A DNA stretch of 25,260 bases, taken from IMG/VR virus record IMGVR_UViG_3300023296_001674. One strand, given 5' to 3'. The notes below the pieces were generated by a model that was not told the DNA's origin, did not search any database, and was given only the letters and a program-made list of their open reading frames with translations. Positions 7,532-25,043 of the stretch are shown in pieces. The stretch is from a virus. Both the position numbers and the translations under genes were made by a program. Position 1 is the stretch's first letter. Every line of letters begins with the position of its first letter.

Positions 7532-7604
7532 TGTTTGATCGTCTTTGGAATACAAGATACCGTTGTCGAAGGCGGAGACGTTGGTTCGAATCCAACTTGA
7601 ACAC
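7532..7604 (+). tRNA. tRNA without encoded CCA; ambiguous anticodon loop (canonical numbering gives GUC; only a 6- or 8-nt loop pairs well)
   Basis: Acceptor tgtttga/ttgaaca 7/7, T-arm gttggTTCGAATccaac. Confidence 0.5.
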
Positions 7605-13765: not shown

Positions 13766-13843
13766 TGACTAGTAGCTCAGTGGTTTAGAGCGGGGAGTTC
13801 TAAACTCTCGACAGCGTTGGTTCAAATCCAACCTGGTCAACCA
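13766..13843 (+). tRNA. tRNA with anticodon CUA (amber-suppressor-like); U1-A72 acceptor
   Basis: D-arm GCTCAGTGGTTTAGAGC, anticodon stem gggag/ctctc, loop ttctaaa, T-arm gttggTTCAAATccaac, CCA encoded. Confidence 0.6.
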
Positions 13844-16799: not shown

Positions 16800-17129
16800 A
16801 TGGATAAAGCTGCGCTAAAAACACTTTCCGATACTCTTAATCGGATATGGGGAATCCCTGAACCAAGGGTCTATTATCCGAATAAACATTTCGAAAAACC
16901 TGAACCAGTTGAACAGACAATGTTCTCAGTGTTCATTCTTGACGCTGGTCCTAAACGGATTAACGTCATTAAAGAAATCAGATCAATCTTAGGATTGACC
17001 CTGAAAGAATCAAAGGATTTTGTTGATAATATAGACAAGAGCCTTGTTCAAGAAGACTTAGAAAAATGGGATGCAGATGCATTAGCCGAAACATTATCAA
17101 ATGTTGGAGCAACTGTTGAAGTTTCTTAA
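16800..17129 (+). CDS. ribosomal protein bL12 (L7/L12) C-terminal-domain homolog fused to a novel N-terminal segment (109 aa)
   Basis: FSVFILDAGPKRINVIKEIRSILGLTLKESKDFVDN...DADALAETLSNVGATVEV matches the bL12 CTD pattern. Confidence 0.6.
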   Translation: MDKAALKTLSDTLNRIWGIPEPRVYYPNKHFEKPEPVEQTMFSVFILDAGPKRINVIKEIRSILGLTLKESKDFVDNIDKSLVQEDLEKWDADALAETLSNVGATVEVS

Positions 17130-17172
17130 AATATACCAGTTTGGTGTCTGGGGTATAAACAAAACACCACCT

Positions 17173-17225
17173 TCCTCTTTCGTATAGTGGTTATGATCTT
17201 TGTGTCGCAATCAGAGGACGATTTT
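17173..17225 (+). pseudogene. tRNA 5' fragment (D-arm plus anticodon arm, no T-arm), diverged copy of the tRNA at 17331
   Basis: ttcgtatagtggttatgatctttgtgtcgcaatcagaggacg versus ttcgtatagtggtcattatctctgtgtcgtactcagaggacgg. Confidence 0.3.
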
Positions 17226-17241
17226 TTGTGGAGGCAATTAT

Positions 17242-17325
17242 GCGCGTAGCCGGTATGTTGGTACTACCACTGGTCTTCCAAACCAGCGCGAAAGCATTGG
17301 GGTTTGATTCCCCCTACCCGCTCCA
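17242..17325 (+). tRNA. tRNA, anticodon UCC (Gly-like), with an 11-nt extended variable region (84 nt)
   Basis: Acceptor gcgcgta/tacccgc 6/7, D-stem ggta/tacc, anticodon stem ctggt/accag, loop cttccaa, T-arm ggggTTTGATTcccc. Confidence 0.6.
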
Positions 17326-17330
17326 ATCAA

Positions 17331-17405
17331 GCCCCATTCGTATAGTGGTCATTATCTCTGTGTCGTACTCAGAGGACGGCAGTTCGATTCCGCCATGGGG
17401 CACCA
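17331..17405 (+). tRNA. tRNA, anticodon CGU-like (Thr); 9-nt loop alternative
   Basis: Acceptor gccccat/atggggc perfect, anticodon stem ctctg/cagag, T-loop TTCGATT, CCA encoded. Confidence 0.65.
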
Positions 17406-17471
17406 ATTACATATTGCATTATATCCTATTTTTTTATATAATAAATAAAAAGAACAATAGGACACGAAACT

Positions 17472-18023
17472 ATGCGCGGAACATTAGAAGTGATTACTGG
17501 CCCAATGTTTGCCGGTAAGACGACAGAAATAATAAAACGATTATTATGGTCAAAACATCAAGGTAAATCAACAATTATATACAAACCAGCAATGGATGAT
17601 AGATATAGTGAAACTGAAATAGTTACACATACCAAATTTTCATACGAAGCAACATCCATCATTGATAGTTTTAATATCAATCCAACATACGATCATTATT
17701 TTTTTGATGAAATACAGTTTCATGATAAAAATATTGTTCCATCTATAACTAAATTATTAGATGAAGGAAAAAATGTAACGGTGGCTGGTTTAGACGCTGA
17801 TTATAAAGGTGTTGCATTTGCGAACACTGCTACGTTAATGGCGATGGCAGACGAAGTATTTAAGATAAAATCGCATTGTAGTTTATGTGGCAAAGATGCT
17901 GCTAAAACATTTAAAACTGGTTCGACAAGCGACCAGCGCATAGAATTGGGTGAAAATGACTTATACCGTGCCAGATGTAATGAGCATTGGTATGTATCAG
18001 GAACTGACGATAGTTTTTCTTGA
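17472..18023 (+). CDS. tdk: thymidine kinase (TK1 family)
   Basis: P-loop GPMFAGKTTE, C-terminal CxxC...CxxH zinc ribbon; SD agga. Confidence 0.8.
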   Translation: MRGTLEVITGPMFAGKTTEIIKRLLWSKHQGKSTIIYKPAMDDRYSETEIVTHTKFSYEATSIIDSFNINPTYDHYFFDEIQFHDKNIVPSITKLLDEGKNVTVAGLDADYKGVAFANTATLMAMADEVFKIKSHCSLCGKDAAKTFKTGSTSDQRIELGENDLYRARCNEHWYVSGTDDSFS

Positions 18024-18048
18024 CAATATTTTTTATATAGCATATAAT
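18020..18048 (+). promoter_or_regulatory. sigma70-like promoter TTGACA-N17-TATAAT
   Basis: TTGACA 18020-18025, TATAAT 18043-18048, upstream of the desaturase gene. Confidence 0.6.
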
Positions 18049-18079
18049 GTTAGTATACAAAATTTTTAGGAGATATTAA

Positions 18080-19063
18080 ATGGATAACAACAATTACAAC
18101 GATTTAAAACAGCGTTTGGTTAATGCAGGATGTTTCGAACGAGCGACATCGCATTATGTTCTACGTATTACAGCAATTCTAATTGCTTATGTGGGAGCAT
18201 ATTTTGTTCTGCTTACACAGCCACTAGGATTGGTTGCAGTGGGTGCATTGATTATTGCAGCCTTTGCCAGCGTTCAGGCTGGTTTCATTTCACACGATGC
18301 TGGTGATGGCGGTATTACATCAAATAAGATGCTATCTACCGGTATGCGACAATTCTTTTTATCGTTTGTTACTGGTGTGAGTAGTTCATATTTTCATGCA
18401 CTACATAAAGTGCATCACAAAACAATGTTTAAAGGATCATCGAAATCATCCGACACAGTTTCAGAAAATGAATACGAAGGCAAATGGTTGAAGAAATTAG
18501 TTTCACGTGATGGTTTGTTATTCATGGTAACGATGGTTACATTACGGGGATTCACATTCAAATTTGAAAGTGTAAAATATATGCTTAAACACGCCAATAA
18601 AACCGCCGCAGATCAACTGTTGGTGGGATTGCACGTTGTAGCATGGCTGATCGTTCCAATGATGATTATTGGACCAGTAGCCATTCTAAACTATGCATTA
18701 TTGACGTTGTTGATTGGACCTTATATCGGAACGGTATTGGTTATTAATCATGCCGGTATGGTAACAGCAAACCGACAAATGCATTTGCCTAAATTTGAAC
18801 GCGTAGTAAATACTACACGCAATCTTGGTGACGGCGTTTGGAACAATCTGTTCTTCGGTGGTGTAAACAACCATATTGAACACCATTTGTTTCCGGGTGT
18901 GCCAGTGCCAAATCTAGGTGAAGCTAGAAAGATTACTGAAGCCTTTTGTGAAGAACGTGGTATTAAATACACCAAAGCTTCATATTTCAGCGCATTAATC
19001 GAAGCCAAAGACCATTTCAAGGGTTTGTCTTCACAGAGATTAGTTGCTGAAGCACTCAACTAA
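18080..19063 (+). CDS. membrane fatty-acid-desaturase-family protein (desaturase / carotenoid-ketolase-like His boxes)
   Basis: HDAGD, HKVHH and HIEHHLFPGVP boxes with several TM segments; SD aggag. Confidence 0.65.
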   Translation: MDNNNYNDLKQRLVNAGCFERATSHYVLRITAILIAYVGAYFVLLTQPLGLVAVGALIIAAFASVQAGFISHDAGDGGITSNKMLSTGMRQFFLSFVTGVSSSYFHALHKVHHKTMFKGSSKSSDTVSENEYEGKWLKKLVSRDGLLFMVTMVTLRGFTFKFESVKYMLKHANKTAADQLLVGLHVVAWLIVPMMIIGPVAILNYALLTLLIGPYIGTVLVINHAGMVTANRQMHLPKFERVVNTTRNLGDGVWNNLFFGGVNNHIEHHLFPGVPVPNLGEARKITEAFCEERGIKYTKASYFSALIEAKDHFKGLSSQRLVAEALN

Positions 19064-19073
19064 GGGAAACTAT

Positions 19074-19550
19074 ATGTTTAAATTTAATGTATGTAATTAC
19101 AGTGATTCACTGTATTCAATGGACAACTATACCAAGGCTATTGGTATAGTTGATCCAGATGAAAAAGTAACACCATCAGAAAAATATCATGTTGCACGAT
19201 GCCACGATATAGTAATGCAGGAACACCCTTGGGTGGCTCCCACAATAGACCAGTTTGTCGCAATTATGAATTTTGCAGAAGATTTTACAGACGATGATGT
19301 TGTAATGATTCATTGCTCTGCTGGTATATCACGCAGCACTGCAACTGCCATATTGTTATTAATGTTGCATGGCGCTGACGAAGAAGAAGCATTTAATGCT
19401 GTTGAACAAAATAGACCAAACATGAATCCAAACACATTGATTCTTCGCTTTGCTGATGAATTATTAGGAATGGATGGCGGTTTGATTGAATATCATAAAC
19501 AATGGATGGCGAAACGGGTTATTAAACCAGTTAGTTTCGCAGGACAATAA
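19074..19550 (+). CDS. dual-specificity (Cys-based) protein phosphatase
   Basis: CX5R signature HCSAGISRS; SD aaggga before the ATG at 19074 (ORF track start 19044 is less likely). Confidence 0.7.
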   Translation: MFKFNVCNYSDSLYSMDNYTKAIGIVDPDEKVTPSEKYHVARCHDIVMQEHPWVAPTIDQFVAIMNFAEDFTDDDVVMIHCSAGISRSTATAILLLMLHGADEEEAFNAVEQNRPNMNPNTLILRFADELLGMDGGLIEYHKQWMAKRVIKPVSFAGQ

Positions 19551-20328: not shown

Positions 20329-20436
20329 TTCCAAGTAGCTCAGATGGTAGAGCGTCTGACTGTGGAACAGATGAGCCTAAAGCTTTGAAGTTCAAATTTA
20401 ATCAGAATGTCGGCGGTTCGATCCCGTCCTTGGAAG
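20329..20436 (+). tRNA. tRNA-His-like (anticodon GUG, second copy) with a structured insertion of about 40 nt in the variable position; no CCA
   Basis: Acceptor ttccaag/cttggaa perfect, D-arm GCTCAGATGGTAGAGC, loop ctgtgga, T-arm ggcggTTCGATCccgtc. Confidence 0.5.
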
Positions 20437-20575: not shown

Positions 20576-20667
20576 GCCTCGGTAGCTCAGAAAAGCAACG
20601 TAAGTTGTAGTGTAGTAGCAGGTGACTGAACCTCACCGTGTCGGTAGTTCGAATCTATCCTGGGGCA
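20576..20667 (+). tRNA. tRNA-like gene, 92 nt: canonical 3' two-thirds (anticodon stem ggtga/tcacc, loop ctgaacc = GAA) with about 17 extra nt between D and anticodon arms; no CCA
   Basis: Acceptor gcctcgg/ctggggc, T-arm ggtagTTCGAATctatc. Confidence 0.45.
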
Positions 20668-20806: not shown

Positions 20807-21307
20807 ATGATCAGATTTTTTGATTACGAAGCAAGTGGATTGGACGCCGAGTCTTATCCTATTCAAGTTGCTTGGTGTGATGTGAATGGTGTTGGCGAAT
20901 CGCATTACATTATACCAAAAGATGAATGGACATATTGGGATTTTCACGCACAACGAGATGTGCATCATATTTCCAGAAGTATGCTTTATGAACAAGGAAA
21001 GCCAGTTGAAATAATCATTGAATTAATGGAAAAGGCATTGATGTGCCGTGATGTATATTGCGATGGTGGTCACTTAGATGAACATTGGCATGAACAGTTA
21101 TATGGTGATAACACCCCAACATTTTGGCTGAATGATTATTTTGCTTTTTTATATGATGTTGTAGACCCATTTAACAGAAAACCTAAATTACCGCATTTCT
21201 ATACAGAAGTGCGTGCCGCTGCTAGATTAGAATGTCCACCTACGCATGATGCCTTGGCTGATTGCCAATTTCTTGCTACTGGATATAGATTAGCAAAAGC
21301 GTTATAA
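20807..21307 (+). CDS. DEDDh-family 3'-5' exonuclease (DnaQ / RNase T / oligoribonuclease-like)
   Basis: Exo I FDYEASGLD, Exo III HDALADC; SD gagga. Confidence 0.7.
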   Translation: MIRFFDYEASGLDAESYPIQVAWCDVNGVGESHYIIPKDEWTYWDFHAQRDVHHISRSMLYEQGKPVEIIIELMEKALMCRDVYCDGGHLDEHWHEQLYGDNTPTFWLNDYFAFLYDVVDPFNRKPKLPHFYTEVRAAARLECPPTHDALADCQFLATGYRLAKAL

Positions 21308-21311
21308 CAAT

Positions 21312-21384
21312 GCCTCCGCCGCTGGGTCGGAGTTGGGACTTCTAATCCCAAACTGGATGAGTTCGATTCTCTCCGGGGGCACCA
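21312..21384 (+). tRNA. tRNA-Arg, anticodon UCU
   Basis: Acceptor gcctccg/cgggggc, 6-bp anticodon stem ttggga/tcccaa, loop cttctaa, T-loop TTCGATT. Confidence 0.65.
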
Positions 21385-21392
21385 ATATTTCC

Positions 21393-21421
21393 TTGACATT
21401 ATGATACAATTATGATACATT
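21393..21421 (+). promoter_or_regulatory. sigma70-like promoter (TTGACA, weaker -10 TACATT) spanning a tandem 11-bp direct repeat attatgataca x2
   Basis: TTGACA 21393-21398; repeat read directly. Confidence 0.35.
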
Positions 21422-21449: not shown

Positions 21450-21689
21450 ATGTCTAAAAAAGCAAAAAGAGAAAACGCGGCAAAACTTATTGCTGAAAAA
21501 GTAACTGCTGCTGAAAATTTAATCAAAGACGCAGAAAAAATCGCAAATAAGTATGGTTTAAGTTTTCGCCACAGTGTTGCATATGGCATGGGTGGCGAAT
21601 ATGAAGGTGACAAAAATTTACGAACAGATCGTTGGGGCGACGCTGATCCAGCAGAAGATGGATGGAGTCCTAGTTCACATAGTTGTTAA
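21450..21689 (+). CDS. small acidic protein, member 1 of a tandem triplicated family (79 aa)
   Basis: Strong SD aaggag; conserved SVAYGMGG.Y.GD ... DGWSPSS.C. Confidence 0.6.
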   Translation: MSKKAKRENAAKLIAEKVTAAENLIKDAEKIANKYGLSFRHSVAYGMGGEYEGDKNLRTDRWGDADPAEDGWSPSSHSC

Positions 21690-21698
21690 GGAGATAAA

Positions 21699-21929
21699 AT
21701 GGCAGATAAAATGACAAACGAAGAAGCAGCAAAGGCGATTTCTGAAAAAGTTTCAGAAGCATATGCTGCTATCAATGCAGCAGAATCAATAGCCGATGAA
21801 TATAAATTGGACTTTAATTTTAGTGTCGCATATGGCATGGGTGGTTATTATAACGGCGATCCAGAAGACCGCGACGACGATGATGATGAAATGAATGATG
21901 GATGGAGTCCTAGTTCACAGGGCTGCTAA
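21699..21929 (+). CDS. small acidic protein, member 2 of the tandem family (76 aa)
   Basis: SD aaggag; about 45% identical to member 1. Confidence 0.6.
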   Translation: MADKMTNEEAAKAISEKVSEAYAAINAAESIADEYKLDFNFSVAYGMGGYYNGDPEDRDDDDDEMNDGWSPSSQGC

Positions 21930-21945
21930 CAAACGGGATTAAGCG

Positions 21946-22176
21946 ATGACTGAATTTACAATGGAACAAGCTGCGCATGTTATTGCGTTAAATGTCGAAA
22001 AGATTAACAAACTGGCACAAGAAACTAAAAATCTTGCTAATGAGCATGGATTAGAGTTTGAATTACAATTGGGTGATACTACTGATGCGCCCTTGCAGTT
22101 TGACGAGAATTGGGATTCTAGCGACTGTGGTTATGATGACCCACCGCATTGGGATTCATCCGACTGTGAGTATTGA
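21946..22176 (+). CDS. small acidic protein, diverged member 3 of the tandem family (76 aa)
   Basis: Shared N-terminal A.HVIALNVEKINKLAQE..NLANEHGLEF pattern; repeated WDSSDC C-terminal motif. Confidence 0.5.
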   Translation: MTEFTMEQAAHVIALNVEKINKLAQETKNLANEHGLEFELQLGDTTDAPLQFDENWDSSDCGYDDPPHWDSSDCEY

Positions 22177-22192
22177 TTGAAAGGACATCGTT

Positions 22193-23101
22193 ATGCTTTT
22201 TATTGGGTCTACTGCATTTAAACAACATCATAATTTACCGGGAATTTTACCGAAAGATATTGATGTTATGGGAACATACGAAGATGTTTCAAAGTATGTA
22301 AAAAGTCTTCATGGTGATCTGGTTGCTGCAAGACCATTTGCGGAAGGTAAGAAATATCTTTTCGTTAAGGCTGGTGATCATAAATCACCCGAAACAATTA
22401 TTGAAGCAGAGATTGCGTGGGAAGGATCGTTAGCAGAAGAATTTATCAAATTGATGGATGATACTGCTGGACATACACGATATGCTACATTGAATGGTTT
22501 ATATACCCTTAAGATGTCGCATCGATATTTGAGAAACTCGCCACATTTTTTAAAGACAATGCGTGATATTCATTTTATGAGAACACTGAAGGCTAGAATT
22601 CCAGATGAGTTGAAGGATTTTTACAAACGGCGAATGGCAGCAACGTATGATTATTCTCATCCTAATTTGAGTGTTACGAAAAAGACATTTTTTGATGGTG
22701 ATGGTATTGATTATAAATATGACCATGATTCAATCCATGAGACAGTTAAGATTGGTGAACATCCGGCTTATTGGTATTTTAAGCCAGATACAAGTGAAGT
22801 TGCGGTAAGCAAGGATTTGTTTGAAGCACTTGATTATGAATCACGAATCAATTCGGTTTTGGAAGAGGCGTATGTTCTTGCTATTGAACGTTCACAGGTT
22901 CCACATCCGGGTGTATTAACACGTAGAAAGAGTTTTGTTCTTGCATTAAATAAAGTATGCTCAAGCATTACTTCTGGATGGTGGAGAGAGTTCGCATGGG
23001 AGAATTATGATTCTGTGTATGAACGATATGACGATTCATATATGTATCGTTTTAACGCTGGAATAGATAGTGGATTGGTAAAACCATTCAATGAGGGATA
23101 G
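22193..23101 (+). CDS. Pol-beta-superfamily nucleotidyltransferase (302 aa)
   Basis: N-terminal hG[GS]x(n)DhDh: IGSTAFKQHHNLPGILPKDIDVM; SD aaagga; TAG stop. Confidence 0.5.
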   Translation: MLFIGSTAFKQHHNLPGILPKDIDVMGTYEDVSKYVKSLHGDLVAARPFAEGKKYLFVKAGDHKSPETIIEAEIAWEGSLAEEFIKLMDDTAGHTRYATLNGLYTLKMSHRYLRNSPHFLKTMRDIHFMRTLKARIPDELKDFYKRRMAATYDYSHPNLSVTKKTFFDGDGIDYKYDHDSIHETVKIGEHPAYWYFKPDTSEVAVSKDLFEALDYESRINSVLEEAYVLAIERSQVPHPGVLTRRKSFVLALNKVCSSITSGWWREFAWENYDSVYERYDDSYMYRFNAGIDSGLVKPFNEG

Positions 23102-23103
23102 CA

Positions 23104-23352
23104 ATGATATATGTTTCTTTTTATAATTATTCATTGGATGCTTATGCAATAGTAGAAGCAGAAAACGTGGATATAGCAAAAGGCAAGTTTAAAAATTATT
23201 CTACCAGTGCTGATGGTTGGAGTAGTGGCGATGTGTTAAAATTTCCTAGAGTTAGCGTTCATGGAAATCTTTATACGATAGAAACTATTGAAGCATATAT
23301 ATCAGATACTCGTAGAAATTCAAAATCTATAGTTCTAATAAGGGATAAATAA
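23104..23352 (+). CDS. hypothetical protein (82 aa), coupled to the nucleotidyltransferase gene
   Basis: Starts 2 nt after the upstream TAG. Confidence 0.5.
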   Translation: MIYVSFYNYSLDAYAIVEAENVDIAKGKFKNYSTSADGWSSGDVLKFPRVSVHGNLYTIETIEAYISDTRRNSKSIVLIRDK

Positions 23353-23561
23353 TGAGAGATATAAATCGCATACCAGAAATTCTAGAGGCAATATATAATG
23401 CTTGGACTATTAATACTGAGTGTAGATTGGGACAAGTGCTTAATAATTCAATTCTTGGCAATCAGAGATTGGTTGATATTGAAGATGAGGAATTGCTTAA
23501 GGGGTTGAATGATTATTATGATAAATTAAATTTTAAGACGCATACAAAGGGTGACGTTTAG
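23352..23561 (+). CDS. hypothetical protein (69 aa), TAATG-coupled
   Basis: Overlapping stop/start. Confidence 0.5.
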   Translation: MRDINRIPEILEAIYNAWTINTECRLGQVLNNSILGNQRLVDIEDEELLKGLNDYYDKLNFKTHTKGDV

Positions 23562-23634: not shown

Positions 23635-23712
23635 TGACGCAGTATTCCGAAGAGAACGACGGTTGGTTGTAGGGCTGATACTGCCTGATGGGTTCGATTC
23701 CCGCTGTGTCAC
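23635..23712 (+). tRNA. tRNA-like gene: 7/7 acceptor (tgacgca/tgtgtca) and GGTTCGATTCC T-arm, unresolved anticodon arm, no CCA
   Basis: Manual fold only. Confidence 0.3.
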
Positions 23713-23768
23713 TAATTAATGTAACAAAAGGAGAAAGACAATGCTTAGAGGAACACGTTTGATGACTG

Positions 23769-24368
23769 GTGCGGAAGCATCTACATACACGAACACTGTT
23801 GACACACTACGGAGGTGTCTTCATCGATAATAATGTCGAAGAAGTTATAGTTCCGTCGTTATGGGAACAGCAGACATTTATTGATAAAGCAGGAAGTGAA
23901 ATTGTAAATCAGATGTGGGCATTTGAAGATAAGAAAAATCGCCCCGTATGTTTGATACCAGAAGTTACTGGTGTTATACAAGAAATGTGGCGCGATGATT
24001 GGAGTAAATCCAAACCAAAGCCATATTCTATTTTTTATGTGAATCGTTGTTATCGTTATGAACGACCACAGAAGGGTAGATATAGAGAATTCACACAAAT
24101 CGGATTAGAAATTCTTGGTGATACATCAGGGAATGATTACGATATGGCAATTAATTTATTGCAAAAGTGTCTCGATTGTTTTACTATAGATTATAAACTT
24201 ACAGAAACGGTACAACGCGGTTTGGCGTATTATGTTGATGATGGGTTTGAAGTCGAATGTGAGAAGTTGGGCGCACAGAAGCAAATTGCTGGTGGTGGTC
24301 GATACAATGAAGGTATTGGTTGGGCTATCGGCGTTGATAGATTAATATTGGGGATTGATGATGACTAG
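23769..24368 (+). CDS. minimal class II aaRS catalytic core of the HisRS/HisZ type (motif 1 region FEDKKNRPVCLIPEVT, motif 2 YRYERPQKGRYREFTQ, motif 3 GGGRYNEG), lacking the insertion and anticodon-binding domains
   Basis: Motif recall against E. coli HisS; an upstream ATG at 23741 with SD aaggag opens a different frame (MLRGTRL...), suggesting a frameshift at about 23790. Confidence 0.65.
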   Translation: MRKHLHTRTLLTHYGGVFIDNNVEEVIVPSLWEQQTFIDKAGSEIVNQMWAFEDKKNRPVCLIPEVTGVIQEMWRDDWSKSKPKPYSIFYVNRCYRYERPQKGRYREFTQIGLEILGDTSGNDYDMAINLLQKCLDCFTIDYKLTETVQRGLAYYVDDGFEVECEKLGAQKQIAGGGRYNEGIGWAIGVDRLILGIDDD

Positions 24369-24774
24369 TTTACACCTTATTACTTCACCGCGTGAATATG
24401 TGACAACTATGACACATAACTCGGATTATCTTCAGTCTTGCAAGACTAATAAACCATCATGGAAAAAAGCGGATCGTTCATTTCATACACTCGAAAATGG
24501 TGACAAATTATTTAATGTGTACTATGATAATGGTAAATTATGCGTGCAAAGATGGTATCAAAAAAGTGCTAAAATTGAATCTAATGATCTTCATCGATTG
24601 GATGGTCCAGCATATATATCTTATTATGAAAATGGCATGTATTATCGATCTTCGTGGTGGATCAATGGAAATTCTATTTCAGGCAAAGTGATGCGATCAT
24701 GGTTAAAAGAAAATAATATTTCTTCGCCATATTCAGATGAAGATCAAATGGCAATAATATTAAGGTGGGGATGA
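24355..24774 (+). CDS. hypothetical protein (139 aa) with an internally repeated LHR.DGPA...NG segment
   Basis: ATGATGA overlap with the HisRS-like stop. Confidence 0.5.
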   Translation: MMMTSLHLITSPREYVTTMTHNSDYLQSCKTNKPSWKKADRSFHTLENGDKLFNVYYDNGKLCVQRWYQKSAKIESNDLHRLDGPAYISYYENGMYYRSSWWINGNSISGKVMRSWLKENNISSPYSDEDQMAIILRWG

Positions 24775-24966: not shown

Positions 24967-25043
24967 GGGCGATTAATCTGGCGAAAATAGGGGTAAAAGG
25001 TGAAGCTCCCCCTTCAGGCGGGTTCAATTCCACGCATCGTCCA
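24967..25043 (+). tRNA. degenerate tRNA-like gene: acceptor gggcgat/atcgtcc, 8-nt T-loop, 6-nt anticodon-type loop, no CCA
   Basis: Manual fold only. Confidence 0.3.

Follow-up and report, generated by a model that had tools for sequence, protein, structure and literature searches.

The window analysed here, the whole 25,260-nucleotide stretch of IMG/VR virus record IMGVR_UViG_3300023296_001674, encodes a nucleotidyltransferase-like enzyme of 302 residues (protein start MLFIGSTAFKQHHNLPGILPKDIDVM) that is preceded on the same strand by three genes for small acidic proteins and followed by two further small open reading frames (ORFs). The original prediction, made from the letters alone, had grouped the enzyme gene with the two downstream ORFs, and the existence, lengths and positions of these three ORFs were confirmed. 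The conserved partners of the enzyme are, however, the three small ORFs upstream and not the two downstream, and the locus almost certainly represents a conserved phage two-component module, in which small acidic proteins encoded in an array, three of them in this case, precede a DUF7277-DUF7275 enzyme on the same strand. The features are:

21450..21689, plus strand: small acidic partner 1, 79 residues, with an AAGGAG ribosome-binding site; matches phrog_899 (E 2.5e-16) and the family hidden Markov model (HMM; E 6.7e-31)
21699..21929, plus strand: small acidic partner 2, 76 residues, a paralogue of partner 1 with the tail GWSPSSQGC-stop; matches phrog_899 (E 7.8e-16) and the family HMM (E 1.3e-30)
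21946..22176, plus strand: small acidic partner 3, 76 residues, a divergent paralogue; matches phrog_899 (E 1.6e-3) and the family HMM (E 4.9e-7)
22193..23101, plus strand: nucleotidyltransferase-like enzyme (ORF1), 302 residues, DUF7277 core followed by a DUF7275 helical domain
23104..23352, plus strand: ORF2, 82 residues, lineage-specific and outside the conserved module
23352..23561, plus strand: ORF3, 69 residues, lineage-specific and outside the conserved module

The enzyme is composed of an N-terminal minimal DNA polymerase beta (Pol-beta)-type nucleotidyltransferase core that corresponds to DUF7277 (residues 1-87, nucleotides 22193-22453; E 6e-9, 36.8 bits with a cut-off of 27) and a C-terminal helical domain that corresponds to DUF7275 (residues 103-279, nucleotides 22499-23029; E 3e-67, 226.6 bits with a cut-off of 27), and it also matches phrog_2141 over residues 1-301 (E 6.8e-97). 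Since it matches all three entries, ORF1 is a real gene, and with both domains above the gathering score, in N-to-C order and in a protein of ~300 residues, it belongs to the DUF7277 + DUF7275 (phrog_2141) family, whose three database entries are all listed as being of unknown function. The Pol-beta signature noticed at the beginning of the protein in the original prediction is borne out by residue conservation: among 85 non-identical relatives G5 and S6 are each kept in 83 and D22 and D24 each in 84, while position 71 is Glu in 78 and Asp in 5, and this conservation extends to T4-like phages. The triad G5-S6, D22-x-D24 and E71 is essentially fixed in a 48-sequence alignment as well as in a hidden Markov alignment of the 85 members, and at the level of the fold the carboxylate pattern hG[GS]...[DE]h[DE]h...h[DE]h lies on an alpha-beta core, as in the Pol-beta superfamily. 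Judged by sequence, the signature is under selection. The same two alignments reveal ~20 further invariant polar residues in the helical domain, including K107, H110, K121, R147, H178, D179, H182, Y193, E224, E225, E232, R233, K254, C256, S258, S261 and R265, giving DUF7275 a second and sizeable cluster of invariant residues (His, Asp, Glu, Lys, Arg and Cys). The Pol-beta centre is complete, with K107 and D125 of the helical domain joining G5-S6, D22-x-D24 and E71.

AlphaFold2 yielded a confident model of the enzyme (predicted local distance difference test, pLDDT, 93.6), in which the fold is that of a nucleotidyltransferase and appears nearest in structure to the AbiEii/MenT and ANT/Lnu group. 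Foldseek, proposed in the original prediction as a means of classification, found no significant match in the PDB (the FeoB and terminal uridylyltransferase rows had template modelling scores <0.25) and retrieved from BFVD only members of the same DUF7275/DUF7277 family. Searches of NCBIfam and PADLOC returned nothing for the enzyme; with the PDB chains as target, a single-sequence search gave only two chance-level globin matches (E 0.24-0.3) and a profile search none at E<=10. The model and the alignments point to an active-looking Pol-beta-fold transferase of its own family.

In the small proteins upstream, partner 1 comprises an N-terminal helix, a beta-hairpin with the motif AYGMGG.Y, an acidic linker and the tail GWSPSSHSC-stop. 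The AlphaFold2 model of partner 2 has a helix at residues 7-35 and a hairpin at 38-41/49-52 with YGMGG in the hairpin loop, while the last ~25 residues have a pLDDT of ~50, indicating a disordered acidic linker and tail. Partner 3 is missing YGMGG and ends in two short tail units (NWDSSDC...HWDSSDCEY-stop; C-terminus ...NWDSSDCGYDDPPHWDSSDCEY), and its stop is separated by 16 nucleotides, containing AAAGGA, from the start codon of the enzyme. All three proteins match phrog_899, a cluster of unknown function that is also matched by 29 of 30 aligned family members, and the window ORFs combine this profile with the C-terminal W-x(1,2)-S-S-x(1,2)-C tail that delimits the partner family. No Pfam family covers the small proteins and a single-sequence tblastn search of a small protein against the phage records retrieved nothing, so the family is visible only with profiles; its 40 relatives in a large protein database are named no further than 'hypothetical protein', except for one evidently spurious label.

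Comparison of the neighbours of a dozen enzyme homologues showed that the gene directly upstream is recurrently small and encodes a helical N-terminus and a C-terminus like ...GWYPSSQSC-stop. An HMM built from nine such proteins and searched on all ORFs of 97 enzyme-containing loci gave 136 matches, every one on the strand of the enzyme and all but about a dozen upstream within ~2 kb. At least one match lies within ~4 kb in 78 of the 97 loci (1-6 per locus), and most of the remaining loci contain upstream ORFs with recognisable tail variants that the HMM missed, rendering the linkage near-universal. By our own count from the distance list, about a quarter to a third of the matches end <=30 nucleotides before the enzyme start codon. 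In the closest relatives of the enzyme (61-63% identity), too, the gene immediately upstream ends in ...GWSPSSQSC-stop. We also ran the comparison in reverse, using a hand-made DNA pattern that encodes AYGMGG.Y and makes no reference to the enzyme: it retrieved 77 viral loci, 42 of them in the small-protein family, and a same-strand enzyme gene is present in 35 of these 42 (34 start 12-1383 nucleotides downstream and one lies upstream), whereas the 7 loci without an enzyme have <=1.6 kb of downstream sequence. A 377-residue protein that joins a small protein (...WNSSGGPACW) to the enzyme (P0064; L183, 107-1240) was rejected as a natural fusion because the DNA has an in-frame TAG, making it a gene-calling artefact or a prediction with recoded TAG.

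The tail is the most constant part of the small proteins. An exact C-terminal Cys is found in 114 of 120 non-identical members, and of these 114, 89 have Trp at position -7 and 23 have it at -5, while Ser occupies -4 in 95 and -3 in 84. Across the 120 proteins the median length is 86 residues (range of the family 45-220) and the median isoelectric point (pI) is 4.5. In the loci searched, 200 of 3,609 ORFs on the same strand carry the tail motif, against 2 of 4,050 on the opposite strand. Because the W-x-x-S-S unit is sometimes duplicated (it is repeated in ~9% of members, the third paralogue of the window included), it behaves as a short linear motif.

Homologues of the enzyme were detected in 735 of 50,697 phage records, nearly all annotated as 'hypothetical protein'. 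The carriers include phAPEC8-type phages, T-even relatives (JS98, APCEc01) and Acinetobacter and Aeromonas straboviruses, along with Ralstonia phages RSP15 and RsoM2USA, Otagovirus, and Gordonia and Streptomyces phages. When 1.84 billion cluster representatives (50% identity) were searched exhaustively with a profile, 1,696 relatives came up at E<=0.001, and nearly all of the 150 listed relatives are ~300 residues in size. Among 185,579 prokaryotic species (one genome each) only 7 copies were found, all on contigs of metagenome-assembled genomes. These searches place the family in large phages, mostly of named lytic groups, and show it to be essentially absent from cellular genomes. BFVD also holds relatives from giant eukaryotic viruses, among them DUF7275 proteins of Sylvanvirus and Satyrvirus with 508 and 571 residues (A0A3G5AJ90, A0A3G5AE53). 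In some phages the enzyme is split into DUF7277-only and DUF7275-only ORFs (Pseudomonas phages KIL4 and KIL2, Stenotrophomonas phage IME13), and the enzyme match in KIL4 overlies an annotated HNH endonuclease. At another locus (L008, 8412-8660) a gene of the anti-CBASS (cyclic-oligonucleotide-based anti-phage signalling system) family Acb5 lies ~2.5 kb downstream of the enzyme family member, consistent with a module that resides in counter-defence or accessory regions.

The two ORFs downstream of the enzyme show no such linkage. Both have plausible ribosome-binding sites and are probably real, lineage-specific genes of the enzyme's transcription unit. They had been described as overlapping start to stop with the enzyme gene, which holds for ORF2 and ORF3, sharing one base (TAATG), but not for ORF1 and ORF2, which are separated by 2 nucleotides (TAG CA ATG). 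ORF2 has no match in Pfam, PHROG, NCBIfam or PADLOC, ORF3 has only a chance-level Pfam match (DUF1040, E 0.12) and none in PHROG, NCBIfam or PADLOC, and tblastn with either found no match in the 50,697 phage records. Nor is there a counterpart of either in 1.6 Mb of related-enzyme loci, the two closest retrieved relatives included; without homologues beside related enzymes, they are not its partners. These findings bear on the proposals that the enzyme is a signalling enzyme of the cGAS/DncV-like nucleotidyltransferase (CD-NTase) type, or that it forms a toxin/antitoxin-like trio with the two downstream ORFs. All that speaks for either is a generic motif (G[GS]...DxD) and the close packing of ORF1, ORF2 and ORF3, while PADLOC, whose library includes CD-NTase models, gave no match, and neither a profile match to CD-NTases of CBASS or cGAS-like enzymes nor a cGAS/DncV-like fold with an extended helical spine was found. 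As ORF1 and ORF2 do not overlap and homologues of ORF2 and ORF3 are absent from the phage collection and from beside the related enzymes, we regard both versions as scarcely credible, and the signalling candidate of the original prediction is not supported.

A role in the maturation of the phage's own tRNAs was another candidate, raised by several tRNAs (at 7532, 20329, 20576, 23635 and 24967) said to be without an encoded CCA. ARAGORN detects 27 tRNAs in the window and Rfam 3 more, and CCA is encoded in 26 of the 27 ARAGORN tRNAs. The claim holds for the tRNAs at 20329-20436 and 20576-20667, which Rfam detects and ARAGORN misses: each carries an insertion of ~20-35 nucleotides and ends in the discriminator followed by CAAAT, whereas the other tRNAs have CCA and then AT, and the two may be intron-containing or otherwise unusual tRNAs. 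It does not hold for the rest, as the match at 7532-7604 is below threshold (25.7 bits with a cut-off of 29) and searches with the tRNA model at 23635 and 24967 gave no match at E<=1. GGTTCGAnTCC T-arm-like boxes with possible acceptor pairing are present at 23690-23716, 25010-25040 and 7532-7604, and these may be degenerate or highly unusual tRNA-like elements.

The two CCA-less tRNAs would fit a tRNA 3'-end (CCA-adding or repair) nucleotidyltransferase, and the RSP15 homologue, which lies directly upstream of the RNA ligase 2 RnlB, would fit a transferase that works in RNA repair with an RNA ligase, as RlaP-type nucleotidyltransferases are known partners of phage RNA ligases and have been proposed to extend damaged RNA by 1-2 nucleotides before it is ligated (PMC7824862, PMC12776372). 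RlaP (PF10127; NrdC.11 of phage T4) is likewise a phage-borne Pol-beta nucleotidyltransferase of ~300 residues found in accessory or early regions, and class II CCA-adding enzymes and poly(A) polymerases (PAP) share the generic G[GS]...DxD metal-binding signature. Yet the enzyme has no CCA/PAP or RlaP match at E<=1, the head-domain profile PolyA_pol (Pfam) and NCBIfam included, its structure matches CCA-adding enzymes and poly(A) polymerases poorly and has no head-neck-body fold, its sequence is without the RRD and ED..R motifs, and at 302 residues it has an unrelated C-terminal domain; BFVD held no significant match outside DUF7275/DUF7277. Homologues of RNA ligase 2 occur in the flanks of only ~6 distinct loci among 184 sources (1.6 Mb), which falls short of the recurrent operonic linkage of RlaP, and 44 of 60 family loci have no tRNA gene within 4 kb. 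Since most of the ARAGORN tRNAs already encode CCA and the obligate small-protein partner would be left unexplained, we consider such a role, including the tRNA 3'-end nucleotidyltransferase listed first among the earlier candidates, very unlikely. The association of the family with RNA repair is loose, not zero: besides RSP15 (L003, 7006-8028), with RnlB directly downstream of the enzyme homologue, RNA ligase 2 homologues are found in the flanks of L176, L086, L103, L088 and L057.

The window also contains a tRNA with the anticodon CUA at 13766-13843 (amber-suppressor type; labelled 'Pyl' by ARAGORN). Despite this tRNA, TAG is the stop of 8 of 43 long plus-strand ORFs, that of the enzyme included, where read-through would add just two residues before a TGA. 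A similar tRNA(CUA) is found near the enzyme family member of another locus (L035).

A toxin/antitoxin-like module had been considered as well, and this idea survives in part: the closest folds appear to be those of toxins of toxin-antitoxin systems, and the partner of MenT1 is usually encoded upstream, whereas the downstream partners originally chosen have no homologues and the small proteins linked to the enzyme are those upstream. In a pair resembling MenAT1 (DUF1814/AbiEii) the enzyme would be an RNA or tRNA 3'-end nucleotidyltransferase that, for example, disables host tRNAs or adjusts RNA ends, and the upstream acidic proteins would be its inhibitors or regulators. Their N-terminal helix would bind the enzyme, and the acidic linker and Ser/Cys tail would enter the electropositive active-site cleft, with the thiol possibly on a metal. 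MenA1 is a 68-residue antitoxin without a DNA-binding domain that blocks the active sites of MenT1, and 15 of 21 identified menA1 genes lie upstream of the menT-like gene (PMC10435456); the phage small proteins are similarly helical, and acidic, the window is rich in tRNAs, and 16 of 60 family loci have tRNAs no more than 4 kb away. However, the phage enzyme has no profile-level homology to DUF1814/AbiEii or any PADLOC toxin (no PF08843 or PADLOC AbiE toxin match at E<=1 in Pfam and PADLOC), with only 10-12% identity in structural alignment, and the additional invariant His, Asp, Glu and Cys cluster of DUF7275 exceeds the needs of RNA-end binding. Antitoxins do not typically come as up to six partner genes for one enzyme, or with an invariant W-x-x-S-S-x-x-C tail rich in hydroxyls, and the module is found in large, mostly lytic phages, not bacterial chromosomes (the 7 matches in cellular species being all metagenome-assembled). 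We regard this as the chief alternative to modification of the small proteins, while considering it unlikely.

The other structural neighbours, ANT and Lnu, suggest a small-molecule nucleotidyltransferase, for example one inactivating or activating a metabolite, with the small proteins serving as carriers or scaffolds, not substrates. This proximity in the model is unaccompanied by any sequence-level relation to those families, no locus has a biosynthetic or resistance context, and the invariant tail would be unaccounted for, making a small-molecule substrate highly improbable.

Pol-beta nucleotidyltransferases that modify a partner are known, namely GlnD acting on PII and MntA acting on HepT, each a Pol-beta-fold enzyme paired, genetically or by function, with a small protein that is covalently modified by a nucleoside monophosphate; GlnD moreover combines its nucleotidyltransferase with a second, His/Asp-rich hydrolase domain. 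The phage enzyme is equipped for nucleotidyl transfer and its sole constant companion has a flexible, hydroxyl-rich, Cys-ended tail, and hence the most economical reading is that of enzyme and substrate. Tentatively, and at somewhat less than even likelihood, we therefore favour an enzyme that acts on the disordered Ser/Cys tail of the small proteins, most simply by nucleotidylylation. The predicted disorder of the tail supports the reading as a substrate, as substrates of modifying enzymes are usually disordered. The enzyme would bind the tail of the co-encoded small proteins and transfer a nucleotidyl group from a nucleoside triphosphate to a tail hydroxyl, that of Ser -4 or Ser -3, while it would fall to the invariant HD..H / EE / C cluster either to hold the terminal Cys in place or to carry the processing of the adduct further. 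Once modified, the small proteins would do their work in the infected cell, in host take-over or counter-defence. The analysis shows the pairing of the genes and its near-universality, conservation of the catalytic residues, the class of fold and a tail that is invariant and, in the model, disordered; the tail as acceptor, the nucleotide used and the downstream role of the proteins are inferred.

Several points weigh against modification of the tail. The known protein-nucleotidylylating enzymes of the superfamily use Tyr, Ser being a less usual acceptor, and GlnD and MntA offer neither a sequence match nor a significant fold match to the phage enzyme. A strictly terminal Cys is unexplained by simple nucleotidylylation of Ser, and the acidic small proteins (given their median pI) might just as well mimic nucleic acid and block a cleft that binds RNA. 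Among solved folds, the nearest (MenT1/3/4) act on tRNA 3' ends and not on proteins, and the small partner of MenT1, usually encoded upstream, inhibits the enzyme rather than serving it (PMC10435456).

Tail modification might also be the first step of an undescribed C-terminal chemistry, a version that we judge quite unlikely: after O-nucleotidylylation of a tail Ser, the invariant His/Asp/Glu/Cys cluster in DUF7275 would catalyse both an elimination and the attack of the terminal Cys, leaving a lanthionine-like or cross-linked cap, possibly involving the conserved Trp, on phage effectors. Precedents for arrays of precursors served by one tailoring enzyme exist among RiPPs (peptides made on the ribosome and modified after translation), for example the prochlorosins with ProcM, and class V lanthipeptides are made with a kinase and a lyase; ANT-like nucleotidyltransferases are the nucleotidyl counterparts of the APH-like kinases in that class. 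The phage module shares with such arrays the tandem paralogous small genes upstream of a single enzyme, and by analogy only the Ser-Ser...Cys core could in principle be dehydrated and cyclised. It differs in that the C-terminal 'core' is invariant and the body variable, the reverse of typical RiPPs, in that the products are folded proteins of 45-220 residues, and in that no protease, transporter or cyclase gene is linked. If the cap chemistry were true, it would constitute a RiPP-like pathway built on a nucleotidyltransferase and spanning T4-like, rV5-like, Ackermann-type, jumbo and huge phages, possibly also giant eukaryotic viruses.

Searches of 8 million papers and preprints for the two families by DUF or PHROG name, for their tail motifs and for allied concepts brought up nothing relevant on either family. 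As both families otherwise exist only as uncharacterised database clusters, the pairing of enzyme and partner and the family with Cys-terminated tails appear to be undescribed in the literature searched. A nucleotidyltransferase with a small-protein partner is a known kind of system, and this one could be categorically new if the chemistry at the tail is novel. Both gene families are widespread in large phages, including well-studied and genetically tractable E. coli phages (phAPEC8-type and the RB69/JS98-type T-even relatives), and once they are seen as a single obligate module of enzyme and partner, two domains without known function become a system that can be tested. Modification of the Cys-terminated tails would amount to a new protein modification used during infection, whereas if the small proteins are inhibitors, a MenT-like RNA-end transferase would be used by a virus rather than against it; either outcome would inform how large phages take over or defend the translation and host-control machinery.

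The window that contains the module is dense in tRNA genes and is part of a very large phage genome; the identical 302-residue protein is found on contigs as long as 570,750 bp. The locus had no megablast match in the phage collection, indicating that this phage is not close to any deposited genome. One further feature precedes the first small gene:

21393..21421, plus strand: sigma-70-like promoter candidate, TTGACA-17-TACATT, TG-extended, 10 of 12 matches in a consensus scan

It lies between tRNA-Arg (21312-21384) and the gene for partner 1 and may be the start of the transcription unit, but such sites are no commoner in the region than in shuffled sequence, which makes the evidence for it weak.

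The neighbouring genes of the window encode a ribosomal L12-like protein, thymidine kinase, a truncated histidyl-tRNA synthetase (HisRS)-like protein and aspartyl-tRNA synthetase. The first two belong to a row at 16800-19550 (ribosomal protein L12-like gene, thymidine kinase, fatty-acid desaturase and dual-specificity phosphatase, by Pfam) of auxiliary genes typical of huge phages. The HisRS/HisZ-like protein (23769-24368, 199 residues) is the core of a class II aminoacyl-tRNA synthetase without the anticodon-binding domain, and it matches TIGR00442 at E 1.5e-38, yet far under the family cut-off. Between tRNA genes, at 20807-21307, lies a candidate DEDD/RNase T-like exonuclease of 166 residues (Pfam RNase_T, E 0.007; phrog_192, E 3.5e-7), which might trim tRNA 3' ends. 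Finally, a small MORN-repeat-like protein is encoded near the enzyme at 24355-24774, and a similar repeat protein with YVDGK.HRLDGPA units is found near the 63%-identical enzyme relative (L182, 1647-1982).

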